Shown in pieces: positions 1 through 33,780 of a stretch of 36,400 nt of DNA (the first letter of the stretch is position 1; each line of letters begins with the position of its first letter). This stretch comes from a virus (taxonomy: Duplodnaviria > Heunggongvirae > Uroviricota > Caudoviricetes). The notes beneath the pieces are model-generated. The model worked only from the letters and a program-made list of their open reading frames with translations. It searched no databases and was not told the origin of the DNA. Made by a program: the position numbers and the translations under genes. The DNA is taken from IMG/VR virus record IMGVR_UViG_2563366874_000010; one strand, given 5' to 3'.

Positions 1-1053
1 TTACGGGGTAATGCCAACCGCTGCCGCCACTTTGTCGCCACTTGGCAGCGTTGCCAGAGGATTGAAACGGAGCGCCGTTTCAAGATGATCCGGTGCCAGA
101 TGTGCGTAACGCATAGTCATTTTTATATCGTGATGTCCGAGGAATTTTTGCAAAGCAAGGATATTTCCACCCGACATCATGAAATGCGCCGCAAACGTAT
201 GGCGCAGAACGTGTGTCAGTTGACCGCGAGGGAGCACGATAGACGTTTTTTCCATCACGGATAAAAATTGAAAATAGCAGTCTGTAAAGAAATTGAACCC
301 ATCAAGCGCCATGATCTCTTCGTAAAGCTCTTTACTGATAGGGATGCTCCTGTTTTTCTTCCCCTTCGTTCTTACAAAGGTAATTCGGTATTTGGTCACC
401 TGTGAGCGGGTAAGATTTATTGCTTCTCGCCAGCGTGCGCCTGTGCTTAGGCATATCTTGACTACCAGTGCCAGAATTGGGTTCTGACGTTTGCAGTCAG
501 ACAGTAATTCGATAATCTGCTCATGTGTAAGCCATGCCATTTCCTTTTCTGCGATAGTGAATTTGCGCATCTTCTCTAATGGGTTTGGAAGTGTCCATTC
601 ACCCAGGCGGGAAAGTTCTCTGAAAACGCTGCTTAGATGGCTTTGCTCCAGGTTAACAGTAACTGGGCTTGCTCCTTTCTTCCATTTTTCACTGAAGTAG
701 ATTTCACCAGTAAGGCGTTTATCGCGATAGTGAGCAAACATTTTTGAGGTGAGATCAGTTGCAAGGGGATTTCCCAAGGCGTCAACCATCAACAGCAGCT
801 TGTTGTAGACATTCTGTCCGGCAGTAAGAGATTTGCCATGTAATTTGAACCATAGCTCAACCATATCTTTCAGTGTCCGACGATCCACTGATTCGCCCAG
901 CCAGGGCTTTGCTTCTATTTCCCCCATGGTGTATCGCTCGAAGGCCAGTGCTTCGCCTTTGGTGGCGAATTGTTTACGCACACGACGCCCATTACGTCCG
1001 GCGGGGTAACATTCGCAAAGCCATTTCCCTGTGGTGAGTTTTCGTACTGCCAT
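1..1053 (-). CDS. int: Tyrosine-family integrase, P2/186 type; complete, stop codon at 1-3
   Basis: 350-aa ORF; C-terminal region has R...HxxR...Y catalytic-type motifs (LRHTFAAH, MTMRYAHL); sits at the prophage end next to the repeat at 19-40. Confidence 0.9.
   Translation of the reverse strand: MAVRKLTTGKWLCECYPAGRNGRRVRKQFATKGEALAFERYTMGEIEAKPWLGESVDRRTLKDMVELWFKLHGKSLTAGQNVYNKLLLMVDALGNPLATDLTSKMFAHYRDKRLTGEIYFSEKWKKGASPVTVNLEQSHLSSVFRELSRLGEWTLPNPLEKMRKFTIAEKEMAWLTHEQIIELLSDCKRQNPILALVVKICLSTGARWREAINLTRSQVTKYRITFVRTKGKKNRSIPISKELYEEIMALDGFNFFTDCYFQFLSVMEKTSIVLPRGQLTHVLRHTFAAHFMMSGGNILALQKFLGHHDIKMTMRYAHLAPDHLETALRFNPLATLPSGDKVAAAVGITP
19..40. repeat. Left copy of a 22-bp imperfect direct repeat (CGCTGCCGCCAcTTTGTCGCCA); candidate att core or Int-binding site
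   Basis: 21 of 22 bp identical to 33546-33567; similarity stops abruptly on both sides in both copies. Confidence 0.5.
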
Positions 1054-1077
1054 AAAAAAGCCCTCATATCAGAGGGC
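1054..1077 (-). terminator. Hairpin (GCCCTC/GAGGGC stem, 6-nt loop) followed by a U6 tract on the minus-strand transcript, directly upstream of the int ATG
   Basis: Stem 1060-1065 pairs with 1072-1077; A-run 1054-1059 on + strand gives U-run on the leftward transcript; the GAGGG of the stem is the only Shine-Dalgarno-like sequence for int. Confidence 0.4.
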
Positions 1078-1136
1078 TAAATTTAACTGTATATACAACC
1101 AGCAATCAATGTGTGATTGCTATGAAACATACATTG

Positions 1137-2813
1137 CTAAGCAACATGTAGTTCATCGTTGGCGGAAGTGGCTGCTTTGCGTTCCTGCTCAATAGCTAGT
1201 GACTCTCTATATTCTTTCGCCTCTGCAAACATTGTCCAGTGGGCATTGATGTTCATATCTTCAATAACCGATTTAATTTCTTTAATATTTACGTTAAAAA
1301 ACTCTTTTCGTGAGTTAATTTTATTGACCTGCTTTTCGTTGAAGACTTTATGCAGATGATTTTCTAATGACGGTGCATCATCACTATAAATCATCGCATG
1401 AACATCGAACGAAAAAGGAACACTAGCATCCCCAAGTTCACGAACACGATCAAGTGGTTCAAGGCGGCGTGTCATTCCAATTTTATATACATCTTCGCCA
1501 AATGAGCCAATATTGCTAATTATATAAACATGGCCTGATCTAGTTTGTTGAGCCATAGAAATAGCTCGTTGGTTTTTAGCTTCAGCTTCTTCATATTTTA
1601 ACTGTAGTTCAGCTATTTTTTGCTCTAAAGCTAAGCGTTGTTCTTCATTTGCAAGCATAAGCTCTTTCGTTGCTTTATTTATAGCTTGCTGAATAGCTTT
1701 CTCTTCTTTTTCGGCTTCTTTTATCGCTTTTTCATACTCTCTACGAGCTCTTTCCTCTTCACGAAGCTGTTCTTTAATCCTTCTTTGCTCCTCTTTTTCT
1801 TCGAGCATAATTTCATTAACTGCAACTCCCCATTTTAGCTCGTTGAGTCGTGCCTGAAGATAGATGTCACTTATTTTTGCGGATCTAAAAGCAGAGCCAT
1901 TATAATTTACAAGTTGAAATGCATCTTTTATTTCTTGGGAAAGTTTTCCAAAATTGTTGTGTTTGACTTTTGATAAAATACTGTCAACTCTTCCATTGAA
2001 GGCATCCAAAACAAAGTTGATAGCAGTATTACGCCTGTTTTGCTCAACATAATCACACGAAGCTGCTTTATTAGTTTTTATTAATAATTTTGTTAACTCC
2101 CTGGCTTTTTGTAATTCCTTGCCTGCATCTGTAAACTCATAATTTTCTGCCAATTCATCAAGTACACTACGGTTAGGGATGATCCATTCATCGCCATAAC
2201 CTTCAATTTTATTTTTCATTGATTTGGCAACTGCTTCATATTTTTCTGCAAACTCTTTAGCTTCATATGCTGAACCAGCAATCTCTTTTGCTCTTTCTTC
2301 TGCATCGGAAATAATTTTTACTGCGTTGTCATTAGCATTTGAGATCAACTCATTTGCTTTACTGTTGGCATTATCAAGACGTTCTTTGGCTTTCAGGCGT
2401 GCATCGCGAGCGTCTTTGGTGATTGCTATAGCTTCGCTATTAGCGTTGCTTATTGTTATCTGAGCTTGATAACTTGCTTCGTTTACTGTCTTAGCTGCCT
2501 TTATTTGGGCTTCTTCTATTTTTTGCCTAGCTATTGAGTCTGCATTTTTTATCTTATTCTCTGCCTCCATCACTGCGCTGTGCAATTCTTCGTATTGCCA
2601 TAATGGTGCTGCTCGCCCTTCAAGCTCTGATAGATCTCGTGCAGTCTGTGCTAACTTTTCTTGATTTTCACTCAGTTGGCTGGAAAGGGCTATGTTGTTA
2701 GCCGTCAGGTTATCTATGGCGGCTTTGTGTTCTTTACTTTGCTTAAATAATATTATAGCTAGAACAGGGGCGAGAAATGCTAATAAGAATATAACGATGG
2801 AAAATGAATTCAT
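1137..2813 (-). CDS. Membrane-anchored coiled-coil protein with C-terminal GIY-YIG-like (T5orf172/DUF4041-type) domain; cargo gene
   Basis: 558-aa ORF; N-terminal hydrophobic helix (IVIFLLAFLAPVLAIILF), about 350 aa rich in A/E/K/N/Q heptad-like repeats, C-terminus GHVYIISN...VYKIGMTRR...R...H; RBS AAGGA upstream; visibly AT-rich. Confidence 0.8.
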   Translation of the reverse strand: MNSFSIVIFLLAFLAPVLAIILFKQSKEHKAAIDNLTANNIALSSQLSENQEKLAQTARDLSELEGRAAPLWQYEELHSAVMEAENKIKNADSIARQKIEEAQIKAAKTVNEASYQAQITISNANSEAIAITKDARDARLKAKERLDNANSKANELISNANDNAVKIISDAEERAKEIAGSAYEAKEFAEKYEAVAKSMKNKIEGYGDEWIIPNRSVLDELAENYEFTDAGKELQKARELTKLLIKTNKAASCDYVEQNRRNTAINFVLDAFNGRVDSILSKVKHNNFGKLSQEIKDAFQLVNYNGSAFRSAKISDIYLQARLNELKWGVAVNEIMLEEKEEQRRIKEQLREEERARREYEKAIKEAEKEEKAIQQAINKATKELMLANEEQRLALEQKIAELQLKYEEAEAKNQRAISMAQQTRSGHVYIISNIGSFGEDVYKIGMTRRLEPLDRVRELGDASVPFSFDVHAMIYSDDAPSLENHLHKVFNEKQVNKINSRKEFFNVNIKEIKSVIEDMNINAHWTMFAEAKEYRESLAIEQERKAATSANDELHVA

Positions 2814-2833
2814 TTTTAAATCCTTTTACTATA

Positions 2834-3430
2834 TCAATTTGAAACTATTGTACTTCTTATACAAGCAACCACTTCAATATCAGAAAATGCACATTCAAAG
2901 CTATTCTCTGTAGTTGTAATTTTAATCATACCTTTTGGAAGCTTTGTGATTTTTCGAATGGAATAGGTTCCGTCGATGTTGATTAACCAGTGTCCATCAA
3001 GTACTTCAGAAAATTTTTGATCACAAATGTATGTGACAAGCCCATCCTGAATAACAATTGGTGATGAAAGATTTGCAGGAAGAAATGATGAATCGAATAC
3101 ATATGAACCATCTTCAATCATTTTGCCTGCGGTAAGGCGAAACTTGGGAAGCTCTTCTGTGGCTACTGTCAGCGAGCTTTGCTTAAGTCCTTGCCCGGTG
3201 GTTAACCATTTCAGTGAGGTTCCTGTTTCAAGAGCACATTGGATTATCCAGTCTGCAGGAAACGTATCCCGCAAATACCTGTTCGCCAGAGTGCTTTTTG
3301 ATACTTCCAAGTGATCAGCTAAAGCCTGTCGTGTCGTAAAGCCATAAGCTTCGACTAATCGCTCAATCGCAGCCTTACCACCTTTATTGGGATTTATTTT
3401 GATCTCACTTGGGTACTTTGATGTTGACAT
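2834..3430 (-). CDS. cI: Immunity repressor, phage 186 CI-like (HTH N-domain)
   Basis: 198-aa ORF with HTH segment TTRQALADHLEVSKSTLANRY and CALETG..W.TGQG, matching recalled 186 CI; divergent from apl/cII. Confidence 0.8.
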   Translation of the reverse strand: MSTSKYPSEIKINPNKGGKAAIERLVEAYGFTTRQALADHLEVSKSTLANRYLRDTFPADWIIQCALETGTSLKWLTTGQGLKQSSLTVATEELPKFRLTAGKMIEDGSYVFDSSFLPANLSSPIVIQDGLVTYICDQKFSEVLDGHWLINIDGTYSIRKITKLPKGMIKITTTENSFECAFSDIEVVACIRSTIVSN

Positions 3431-3452
3431 ATCTCTTTTGCGATCCTAGTAT
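3424..3452 (+). promoter_or_regulatory. Candidate rightward lytic promoter (pR-like): TTGACA - 17 bp - TAGTAT
   Basis: -35 TTGACA at 3424-3429, -10 TAGTAT at 3447-3452, upstream of apl; flanked by direct repeats TTGGGTACTT at 3409-3418 and 3469-3478. Confidence 0.45.
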
Positions 3453-3525
3453 CAGTTTTGTCCCCATTTGGGTACTTGTCACGATTACTACAGGCTCACC
3501 ACAAGCCAATAGGAGATGTTGCATC

Positions 3526-6483: not shown

Positions 6484-8894
6484 GTCATGCCGATATGAGC
6501 GACTCTAGCGGCTTTAACGAGGCCGCTGCAGCATTTTCATGGAACGGCCCGAAAAAGGCCATAAACCCTTATCTGGACCCGGCGGAAGTTGCGCCGGTTT
6601 CTGCGCTTTCAAACCTGATCACTCTGTATGCTGCCGATAACGAGCAGGAACAGCTGCGCCGCGAGGAATTGAGTGAACAGGTCTGGGAGCGTTATTTCTT
6701 TAATGAATCCCGTGATCCTGTCCAGCGCGAAATGGAGCAGGATAAGCTCATTAGTCGGGCAAAGCTGGCGCATGAGCAGCAGCGTTTTAACCCGGACATG
6801 GTCATTCTGGCGGACGTCAGCGCCCAGCCCACCCATATCAGCAAGCCGCTGATGCAACGTATCGAATACTTCAGCAGCCTGGGCAGGCCAAAGGCTTATT
6901 CCCGCTATTTGCGTGAGACGATTAAGCCATGTCTGGAGCGACTGGATTGTGTACGTGACAGTCAGCTATCTGCTTCTTTCCGTTTTATGGCAAGCCATCA
7001 AGGGCTGGAGGGCCTGCTGATCCTGCCTGAAATGAGTCAGGATCAGGTGAAACGCCTGTCCACCCTGGTAGCAGCGCATATGAGCATGTGTCTTGAGGCC
7101 GCTTGTGGTGATTTGTATGCCACCGATGACGTTAAGCCAGAAGAAATCCGCAAGACATGGGAAAAGGTGGCAGCGGAAACCCTGCGTCTGGATGTTATCC
7201 CGCCTGCGTTTGAGAAACTTCGTCGGAAAAGAAACCGCCGCAAACCCGTGCCCTATGAACTCATACCGGGTTCGCTGGCACGTATGCTTTGCGCCGACTG
7301 GTGGTATCGGAAATTGTGGAAGATGCGTTGCGAATGGCGGGAAGAGCAGTTGCGTGCTGTCTGTCTGGTCAGCAAAAAAGCATCTCCCTATGTCAGCTAT
7401 GAAGCAGTGACACATAAACGTGAGCAGCGCCGCAAGTCGCTGGAGTTTTTCCGTTCTCATGAACTGGTGAATGAAGACGGAGACACGCTGGATATGGAGG
7501 ATGTGGTAAACGCCAGCAGCAGCAATCCGGCGCATCGCCGCAATGAGATGATGGCCTGTGTTAAAGGTCTGGAGCTTATCGCAGAAATGCGCGGTGACTG
7601 CGCCGTTTTCTACACTATCACCTGTCCGTCACGTTTCCATTCCACGCTCAACAACGGCAGACCCAACCCGACCTGGACAAATGCGACGGTAAGACAAAGC
7701 AGCGATTATCTGGTCGGCATGTTTGCTGCATTTCGTAAGGCTATGCACAAAGCCGGGTTGCGCTGGTATGGCGTGCGGGTGGCTGAGCCGCACCATGACG
7801 GTACTGTGCACTGGCATCTCATGTGTTTCATGCGCAAAAAAGACCGCCGCGCCATTACTGCATTGTTGCGTAAGTTTGCCATCCGTGAAGACCGTGAGGA
7901 ACTGGGCAATAACACGGGGCCACGCTTTAAGTCTGAGCTGATAAACCCGCGCAAAGGAACGCCGACAAGCTACATCGCGAAATACATCAGTAAGAACATT
8001 GACGGACGTGGTCTGGCTGGCGAGATCAGCAAGGAAACGGGTAAATCCCTGCGTGATAACGCCGAATACGTGAATGCCTGGGCGTCTCTACATCGTGTTC
8101 AGCAGTTCCGCTTCTTTGGTATTCCGGGGCGTCAGGCGTACCGTGAACTTCGCTTGCTGGCTGGTCAGGCGGCAAGGCAACAGGGTGACAAAAAAGCAAG
8201 TACGCCGATACTGGATGACCCGCGCCTTGATGCCATCCTGGCTGCCGCTGATGCTGGCTGTTTTGCCACCTACATCATGAAGCAGGGCGGCGTACTGGTT
8301 CCCCGCAAATATCACCTTATCAGAACAGCTTATGAAATTAACGAAGAGCCGACCGCTTATGGCGATCACGGTATTCGTATTTATGGCATCTGGTCACCCA
8401 TTGTACAGGGCAAGATCTGCACTCATGCAATGAAATGGAAAATGGTTCGTAAGGCCGTTGACGTTCAGGAGGCGGCAGCCGACCAGGGCGCTTGCGCCCC
8501 TTGGACTCGTGGCAATAACTGTCCCCTTGCTGAAAATTTGAACCAACAGGAGAAAGATAAATCAGCTGATGGGGACACCAGAACGGACATTACCCGCATG
8601 GATGACAAGGAGTTGCACGATCACCTGCACAGTATGAGCAAAAAAGAGCGCCGGGAACTGGCTGCAAGGTTACGCCTGGTTAAACCGATACGGCGTAAAG
8701 ACTACAAACAGCGAATTACAGATCATCAGCGACAGCAGCTCGTTTATGAGCTGAAGTCCAGAGGATTTGATGGCAGCGAGAAAGAGGTCGATTTACTCCT
8801 TCGCGGCGGCAGTATTCCGTCAGGAGCAGGCCTGCGTATCTTCTATCGGAACCAGCGTCTGCAGGAGGATGATAAATGGCGGAACCTGTATTAA
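6480..8894 (+). CDS. A: Replication initiation protein, P2 gpA-like rolling-circle endonuclease
   Basis: 804-aa ORF with HxH-type segment ([13 protein letters not shown]) and tyrosine-containing region (YIAKYISKN). Confidence 0.9.
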
Positions 8895-9246: not shown

Positions 9247-9480
9247 ATGCGCATTGAAATAATGATCGATAAAGAGCAGAAGATTAGCCAGTCTACCCTG
9301 GACGCCCTTGAATCCGAGCTTTACCGCAATCTGCGCCCCCTGTATCCCAAAACGGTAATTCGTATCCGTAAAGGTAGCTCTAACGGTGTGGAACTGACCG
9401 GACTGCAACTGGATGAAGAAAGAAAACAAGTGATGAAAATTATGCAGAAGGTGTGGGAAGACGACAGCTGGCTGCATTAA
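9247..9480 (+). CDS. DinI-family protein (Tum C-terminal-like)
   Basis: 77 aa starting MRIEI, resembling recalled E. coli DinI (MRIEV...DAL..EL...WE..D.W); RBS GAGGTGA upstream. Confidence 0.8.
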   Translation: MRIEIMIDKEQKISQSTLDALESELYRNLRPLYPKTVIRIRKGSSNGVELTGLQLDEERKQVMKIMQKVWEDDSWLH

Positions 9481-9672
9481 GAAACGTTGCCCCCAGGAGG
9501 ATTCATTCTGATGGGGGCTAGTTTGGGCAACGAGTGAAACGAGGCGTAAGGTGGGTGGGCATTTTGATAAGTGATCGTCCGCTTTGTGTCAGAAGCAGAA
9601 GTGGGAGTGTCTGAGACTCTCTAAAAGTTGATGATTCACTTACAAAACCATTTTCCTGATGAATGCTTACAC

Positions 9673-10008
9673 TTACGAATGATCATTCTGTTTAGTCTTC
9701 ATGAGAAAATCCCGAATCTTTGCCAAGTTTGAATTTTCGGGGATTGAATCCATGTACGGATCACGCTCAAACACTAATTGCTCAGATTCAACGAAAGCCT
9801 GCCACTCTACTGGGTCTAGCTCAAATCCCATTGCTGTCATATCACTTTCATCTTCCCCCTCGATCCAGTGGACTAAATAAAACAATTCATCATCAGGAGA
9901 ATCATCCTCACCATCAACAATATCAACATCGGTTACAGTGATACGTAGGGTGGGATCGATTTTTGAGACATAAATTCCTAACTGTGGTATAGGGGGAATA
10001 TTGTTCAT
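9673..10008 (-). CDS. Small strongly acidic protein, unknown function; cargo
   Basis: 111-aa ORF with strong RBS (AAAAGGAG) before ATG at 10008; D/E-rich runs (DGEDDSPDDE, EGEDESD); convergent with the SOS module. Confidence 0.7.
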   Translation of the reverse strand: MNNIPPIPQLGIYVSKIDPTLRITVTDVDIVDGEDDSPDDELFYLVHWIEGEDESDMTAMGFELDPVEWQAFVESEQLVFERDPYMDSIPENSNLAKIRDFLMKTKQNDHS

Positions 10009-10387
10009 GGAAACTCCTTTTATTGGTGTTTGCTATTTGAATAAAAATACGCCAAACAGAGTGTTAACTGTGAATATGGAAAGAATCGTTGTAAGTACCC
10101 CGCTTAGGTGTCCCATTCTATTTTAGAGGTTCTCGTGCATATGGATTATGTTATCTGAAAGCTAACTTCCGCTTCCCGTTCACAGCGAACATTCATCTTT
10201 GTAAACCCGTATGATCCGTTTTTCAAGTGGCCATTCAGATACGGATTTTCACTTCCTTGACAGTGCATGACTATGCTGCATGAAATCGCATGATCGATTG
10301 AGGATCGTCTTTGCTCAGATCCGCCAGAACTGGCGGGCTTTTGCTCATGTCATGCATGTGCATGAAAACCACTGCATAAAGCGGGCA

Positions 10388-10406
10388 GGCGTGGCGGGGA
10401 TACGAG
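10388..10406. other. Candidate cos cohesive-end sequence (GGCGTGGCGGGGATACGAG)
   Basis: First 13 nt match the recalled P2/186 cos 19-mer family (GGCG[A/T]GGCGGGGA); hairpin plus T-tract (10321-10342) just upstream. Confidence 0.35.
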
Positions 10407-10458
10407 CGCGCGCTATCACCGAAAATAGCCAAAATACTTCTGGAAAACAGAAAGTTGA

Positions 10459-12405
<1,947 letters not shown>

Positions 12406-33567: not shown

Positions 33568-33780
33568 TCGTTAAAAAACAGTGCTTCTAACATCATGATT
33601 TTAAAAGGCATAAATTTTAGACAACAAAAAACCCACCAACCTTGAACCGAAATGGCGGGGTTGATGGGCTCCACAAAATGGGGACATCAAAGAAAAGCAG
33701 TGGCACTAATTAAGACTGATGCCCTGCGGAAAAGTTCTGCGGTTGTGCAAAAAAATTTCATTTTCAGGGCAACTTCAGTT

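Follow-up and report, generated by a model that had tools for sequence, protein, structure and literature searches.

The small acidic gene on the minus strand at 9673-10008 of the DNA analysed here (a stretch of 36,400 nucleotides, hereafter the window) is independent of the retron Ec67 that lies beside it, and comparison with its relatives indicates that it was carried, together with its 5′ region and the beginning of an integrase gene, out of a lysogeny operon and into an accessory slot of a P2-family prophage. Its product, a protein of family DUF8087, may be an acidic inhibitor made in the resident state and directed against a competing invader, an explanation that, taken whole, is given a probability of about 0.4. 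Pfam (DUF8087) and PHROG (17127) already list the family, and the gene appears in Table S5A of Rousset et al.; what is new is its separation from the retron, the cassette with its integrase vestige, the origin in a lysogeny operon and the retention of orphan copies beside defence systems.

The DUF8087 gene and its protein

The orf begins with ATG, encodes 111 amino acids and is preceded by the Shine-Dalgarno sequence AAGGAG (10014-10019, minus strand) with a spacer of 5 nt. The protein has a net charge of -19 and a pI of 4.05, with 15 aspartates and 11 glutamates (23%) against 7 lysines and arginines; a charge of -16 is concentrated in residues 26-65, where two acidic loops are found (residues 32-42 and 51-59). 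The original prediction of a highly acidic 111-aa protein with a strong ribosome-binding site, encoded on the opposite strand, is therefore upheld.

An identical protein, RefSeq WP_001059831.1, is named 'DUF8087 domain-containing protein' in recent annotations, and phrog_17127 (function unknown) matches residues 1-111 with E=2e-70. A search of 5.8 billion proteins returned 61 homologues at E≤1e-3, all of them, the cluster representative 98% identical to the window protein included, bearing precomputed PF26332. Exhaustive profile search of 1.84 billion cluster representatives yielded 35 proteins, including acidic relatives of 70-130 aa that match the first 80 residues. Scans against NCBIfam and a copy of Pfam-A that lacks the PF26332 model matched no family, PADLOC-DB v2 likewise gave none at E≤0.1, and a literature search on DUF8087, PF26332 and WP_001059831 found no paper discussing the protein or its family. 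Pairwise dN/dS values among nine orthologues are 0.04-0.25 (0.42 for one close pair), indicating a genuine gene under purifying selection.

Acidity is kept across the family, with net charges typically between -8 and -22, and ten positions are invariant or nearly so among its wide membership (P8, G11, Y13, V25, V28, V46, D56, E63, W69 and L78), while the first acidic loop is missing from several distant homologues. The conserved residues and the dispensability of this loop suggest that binding depends on a specific surface and not on charge alone. Two AlphaFold2 models (pLDDT 78 from 30 sequences and 84 from 59) agree in secondary structure, with strands at residues 11-15, 22-31, 43-50, 60-64 and 78-82 and helices at residues 66-75 and, at the C-terminus, 94-109; this would amount to a generic SH3/Tudor-like small barrel with acidic loops. 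The predicted fold matched no known DNA mimic, anti-defence or defence protein, a profile search of PDB sequences gave no hit at E≤10, and hhalign comparison with the neighbouring DinI-like protein (probability 0.1%) found no relationship.

The charge, the low pI and the conservation of acidity would suit a counter-defence DNA mimic that blocks a host restriction or defence nuclease, RecBCD or H-NS, and so lets the element establish itself or shields it on induction. This is the main rival to a resident-state inhibitor, but it is unlikely: no similarity of sequence or predicted fold was found to Ocr, ArdA, Arn, Gam, anti-CRISPRs or any solved structure, the profiles and solved members of the known DNA-mimic and anti-restriction families (Ocr, ArdA, ArdB/KlcA, Arn and Gam) included, and the distant homologues that dispense with the first acidic loop also speak against it.

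Prophage setting and independence from retron Ec67

From its sequence, the window is a 186/Fels-2-like prophage of the P2 family. On the minus strand are the integrase (1-1053), a 558-aa PD-Lambda-1 defence gene (1137-2813; PADLOC E=1.6e-119, Pfam DUF4041 and T5orf172/MUG113) and the CI repressor (2834-3430); the early operon on the plus strand runs from CII through Dam and gpA (ending at 8894) to a 62-aa orf and a DinI-like gene (9247-9480). The DUF8087 gene is oriented against the early operon and has the DinI-like gene on one side and the conserved P2-family cos region (10262-10414) on the other. The RT-Toprim gene of retron Ec67 is on the plus strand, its PADLOC type I-C match extending from residue 61 (10645) to 12405, and the portal and terminase genes are on the minus strand. 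The PD-Lambda-1 gene is a second defence cargo of this prophage and fills the cI-int slot, the place that DUF8087 orthologues take in other prophages of the P2 type.

Two observations identify the cos region. A block of about 150 bp (10262-10414) is shared by 85 P2-family phage records, and prophages that differ in cargo match exactly as far as about 10413 and have no relationship after it. The assignment agrees with the passage of PMC6868368, citing Dodd and Egan 1996, according to which Ec67 and Ec86 take the place of about 180 bp that separate cos from the terminator of a packaging gene. Inside the cos region, just before the cohesive-end sequence GGCGTGGCGGGG, is a terminator-like GC hairpin with a T-run (10320-10337, plus strand). 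A 64-aa 'hypothetical protein' of RefSeq (WP_071529030, phrog_28685; 10280-10474, plus strand) overlaps cos and crosses the cargo junction at about 10413, and is therefore probably not a real gene. The reverse transcriptase orf as listed (10465-12405, 646 aa) begins 60 codons before both the PADLOC match and the published 586-aa enzyme; msr/msd should lie between the cargo junction and 10645 (10420-10645, plus strand), and a promoter-like site is found at 10525-10552. An Rfam scan of the window at gathering thresholds identified RybB (33623-33701, minus strand, 104 bits), in the host chromosome just past the right end of the prophage, and no retron or leader RNA family.

What occupies the slot between dinI and cos varies: phage vB_EcoM-813R9 has nothing there, and Fels-2 and Klebsiella phages have an unrelated gene of 243 aa. 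The GC content of the DUF8087 gene is 40.5%, compared with 50.4% for the whole window and 33.9% for the retron, and the gene is carried by 214 of 5426 complete E. coli genomes, compared with about 1300 that have the flanking dinI/cos backbone. It thus combines the presence/absence polymorphism and the deviant base composition of a moron, and its earlier placement as cargo in a variable slot of a P2-family prophage, between the gpA/dinI region and cos, was correct.

A functional link to the adjacent retron had also been raised, and here the evidence runs the other way. About 132 of the 214 E. coli carriers have the window allele (≥99% identity), and in only 11 of them is the gene adjacent to Ec67. 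The identical gene, with its 400-bp flank up to cos, is found beside retron Ec86/St85 in BL21(DE3), and elsewhere beside a DprA-like gene (E2348/69 and AMSHJX01), GmrSD (E. coli W and 88-3493), a different Ec67-family reverse transcriptase (13E0725) and two hypothetical proteins (CFSAN064036). Conversely, Ec67 at 98-99% identity is present without the DUF8087 gene in three genomes, and DUF8087 without Ec67 in more than 120. The original prediction proposed a co-occurrence analysis and held that absence of the gene from related retron-bearing prophages, with no loss of function, would tell against it; the three Ec67 genomes without the gene and the other cargos are evidence of this kind. This double dissociation shows, at the level of genome comparison, that DUF8087 is independent of retron Ec67.

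That DUF8087 might nevertheless be an accessory or regulatory partner of Ec67, as physical adjacency in the window and 10 other genomes would suggest, is scarcely tenable. Besides the three genomes that lack the gene and the at least six other cargos that the identical gene adjoins, PADLOC treats RT-Toprim I-C as a single-gene system, and DUF8087 orthologues are found in elements without any retron. Nor is the gene a consistently co-oriented or co-occurring component: it is on the opposite strand, and the cos site lies between it and the retron, placing the two at opposite ends of packaged DNA. In Table S5A of Rousset et al. it is listed as 'hypothetical' with RVT_1, AAA_15/AAA_21 and other cargo (PMC9122126). 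Users of the BL21 retron locus or of the P2 hotspot as a cloning unit should regard the gene as separate from the retron.

The mobile cassette and its relatives

Blastn searches and a seven-way alignment define a mobile cassette with sharp ends (about 9637-10183, minus strand). Its parts are some 170 bp 5′ of the ATG (10009-10183, with a sharp outer boundary), the DUF8087 orf and the first codons of a P2-type integrase gene. Identity is 85-96% between copies in unrelated contexts of insertion, the seven that were aligned being the window, the E. coli ychF island (80 genomes, a 90% allele), Morganella, Proteus, Serratia, Lonsdalea and Symbiopectobacterium. In cassette copies the integrase start codon overlaps the end of the DUF8087 orf, and in the window the remainder of the integrase is a vestige of 16 codons and a stop (9636-9686, minus strand), MIIRKCKHSSGKWFCK, which resembles the N-termini of intact integrases (these start M[AT]VRKL..GKWLCECYP). 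The alignment thereby marks the gene as derived from a lysogeny operon in which DUF8087 precedes int, and comparison of the copies shows that the cassette has been moved into the accessory slot that lies between dinI and cos in a 186/Fels-2-like prophage.

The 5′ region is presumed to be the gene's own promoter and operator. It contains a weak TTCACA-19-TATTTT (10074-10044) and a partial dyad, ACAG-N8-CTGT, that overlaps the weak -35; a LexA box (CTGT-N8-ACAG) was not seen by eye, the dyad being the reverse. Promoter and terminator scans found no convincing sigma-70 promoter in this region and no clear terminator. RNAalifold gave no covariation support (covariation term +0.36), so no RNA structure is claimed. 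Across unrelated insertion sites the region is conserved as strongly as the orf, and two copies of the cassette have a 14-bp deletion within it.

The ancestral arrangement can be seen in more distant relatives. In Klebsiella P2-like prophages the order is repressor, Flk_N-like tail-anchored protein, DUF8087 and integrase, with overlapping stop and start codons, and the same order of genes, again with the overlap, is found in Buttiauxella and around a 41%-identical metagenomic relative. An 82-aa relative at a prophage end follows repressor and integrase, another relative comes after an integrase C-terminus, and in betaproteobacterial Int/AlpA/Phage_GPA elements DUF8087 heads a unit divergent from the replication operon. 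The conserved gene orders show that, historically, DUF8087 was part of a repressor-integrase transcription unit.

Such an operon would be expected of a lysogeny or recombination regulator, translationally coupled to a P2-type integrase, that modulates its own Int or the gpA nuclease. The start/stop overlap with int occurs with both gene orders and in lineages down to about 40% identity, and the primary carriers are all elements with a tyrosine integrase and a Phage_GPA replicase. A regulator of this kind is improbable, however: the gene is missing from most P2-family phages, in the window it is about 9 kb from int and has its own 5′ region, and elsewhere it is kept where int has been destroyed or is absent.

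The Flk_N-like protein (phrog_5825, 210-250 aa, tail-anchored) precedes DUF8087 in three divergent P2-like lineages (L010 5343-5990, L027 7341-7970 and L030 506-1135), weakly resembles Ant antirepressors in their C-terminal domain and may form a two-gene module with DUF8087. It was rejected as a clue to function because phrog_5825 is of unknown function, the Ant-C-like similarity is weak and the protein is absent from the window. A 127-aa orf of phrog_26730 with a hydrophobic N-terminal stretch follows the cassette in Proteus, Lonsdalea and the E. coli ychF island (L026 8538-8921; also L005 and L009), and in Proteus it is followed by PD-T7-1.

The betaproteobacterial loci L036 and L039 (from Nitrosospira and a metagenome contig) are small integrative elements with a tyrosine integrase, an AlpA-like HTH_17 protein and a Phage_GPA replicase, and may represent an undescribed satellite-like element type. 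One carries a TIR-NLR-like gene as cargo, and the other a BglII restriction-modification system and Gabija.

The gene is rare, being found at 5 loci among 185,579 species representatives scanned in a narrow alignment search. By tblastn there was no match in 50,697 deposited phage genomes, and among 72,556 plasmids a match in only one prophage-like record. All carriers are mobile elements or their remains, which would suit a counter-defence mimic, and the CP4-like islands of Morganella and Proteus that have the gene also encode a protein of the Antirestrict family (PF03230). Temperate-phage anti-defence genes, moreover, can be expressed in lysogens. Against such a mimic stand the absence from deposited phage genomes and conjugative plasmids, the position on the lysogeny side of the switch rather than in an early or leading region, and the retention of intact orphans with no element left to protect.

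In Pantoea (L037, 6001-6309) the gene is a lone orphan, 330 bp from tRNA-Leu(taa)/tRNA-Cys and next to pgsA-uvrC, at the attachment site that the Klebsiella P2-like prophage (L010) uses; remnants of integrase, repressor and Flk_N were not found around it. An intact DUF8087 likewise accompanies a truncated integrase, or survives without one, in Serratia, Symbiopectobacterium, Lonsdalea, Proteus, Morganella and the E. coli ychF island, and the identical copy of E. coli BL21(DE3) is intact within a defective prophage. In each of its contexts the cassette has validated or candidate defence genes as neighbours: Mokosh MkoC in Morganella, PD-T7-1 in Proteus and a Tiamat/Mokosh-like helicase in the E. 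coli island, to which Ec67, Ec86, DprA and GmrSD may be added. These contexts show that DUF8087 repeatedly adjoins defence genes and has repeatedly been kept intact after decay of the element.

A small, acidic protein kept as an orphan could also be an antitoxin or immunity protein against a basic toxin that competitors deliver or that is encoded at another locus, and one relative does adjoin a HigB/HigA pair. That pair is complete without DUF8087, though, and the family has no conserved partner gene, its neighbours varying in every context, and no match to PADLOC or to toxin-antitoxin or immunity families of Pfam. This role is decidedly improbable; it and regulation of Int or gpA are both less likely than a counter-defence mimic.

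Proposed function and comparison with known systems

The preferred explanation is that the DUF8087 protein is made while the element is resident. It would be cytoplasmic, since it has neither a signal peptide nor a transmembrane segment, and would fold as an SH3/Tudor-like β-barrel with acidic loops and a C-terminal helix. It would be no enzyme but a stoichiometric inhibitor that fills the basic, nucleic-acid-binding surface of a target protein. The lean is towards a target in a competing invader, for example a superinfecting phage or a satellite; a P2-family replication endonuclease or another DNA-binding protein is one possibility. DUF8087 would then be a lysogenic-conversion or exclusion factor in the manner of P2 tin, old and fun, and not a partner of whichever defence system adjoins it.

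Of the two components of this explanation, the acidic-inhibitor mechanism is slightly favoured, acidity being conserved together with the position-specific residues P8, G11, Y13, D56, E63 and W69. The protective, resident-state direction is more tentative. The lean towards protection or exclusion comes from the position on the lysogeny side, the retention of orphans, and the absence from virulent phages and from plasmids; collections of phage genomes and plasmids are exactly where classic anti-restriction mimics of the entry phase occur. The genomic positions point to expression at residence rather than at entry, and the presence of PD-Lambda-1 in the cI-int slot of the window shows that such slots carry lysogen-expressed protective cargo.

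Several considerations count against a resident-state inhibitor. Adjacency to defence genes and integrases may reflect nothing more than prophage ends and hotspots, which gather accessory genes of all kinds, and intact genes in remnants could mean that decay is recent, not that selection has acted. A small, soluble and acidic protein is what one would sooner expect of a counter-defence inhibitor than of a defence protein, and the lack of a PADLOC match and of a convincing sigma-70 promoter also weigh on the negative side.

The broadest outcomes are doubtful ones: DUF8087 might represent a new family of enzyme-free, lysogen-expressed inhibitors, built on an acidic SH3/Tudor-like barrel, that block a DNA-binding protein of invaders such as the gpA-type replication nuclease or an integrase, or else a broad counter-defence mimic. 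In the former case, a single protein would shield a resident P2-type element, or its remnant, from related invaders; in the latter, the recurrent placement beside unrelated defence systems would be explained. The cos-proximal hotspot of P2 is a proven source of anti-phage systems, and DUF8087 recurs there under the label 'hypothetical' or DUF. As a conserved mobile cassette that is kept when its element decays and is found near defence genes, it is a reasonable candidate for a player in conflicts between phages or between phage and host. The identical copy beside Ec86 (Eco1) in E. coli B and BL21(DE3) makes knockout and over-expression easy.

Among known systems, the lysogenic-conversion genes old, tin and fun(Z) of P2 and the cargo of its cos-proximal hotspot resemble DUF8087 in being accessory, variable and low in GC, in their position between gpA and cos (PMC9122126) and, presumably, in being expressed from the prophage. 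They differ in that there is no sequence relationship and the 111-aa DUF8087 protein has no enzymatic or ATPase domain; DUF8087 is also outside the set of systems cloned by Rousset et al. 2022 (PMC9122126). The DNA mimics T7 Ocr, ArdA, T4 Arn, lambda Gam, T7 gp5.9 and the acidic anti-CRISPRs share with it small size, cytoplasmic location, acidity (pI about 4) and carriage by mobile elements, whereas the niche of DUF8087 is integrated elements and their remnants rather than virulent phages or the leading regions of plasmids.

Three other proteins offer further points of comparison. CarS of Myxococcus xanthus is an acidic antirepressor with an SH3 fold that mimics operator DNA, and by analogy the small β-barrel predicted for DUF8087, also of about 110 aa, might use its acidic surface to block a DNA-binding protein. 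DinI, a small acidic protein of SOS regions, mimics DNA to bind RecA; the DinI-like gene of the window is adjacent and convergent to DUF8087, while the predicted topologies differ. The glo gene of Vibrio phage K139 is a moron in the repressor-integrase operon of P2-like phages. Its product is unrelated to DUF8087 and is secreted, whereas DUF8087 has no signal peptide, but the operon slot of glo matches that of the Klebsiella and Buttiauxella orthologues, for which expression in the lysogen would be expected.
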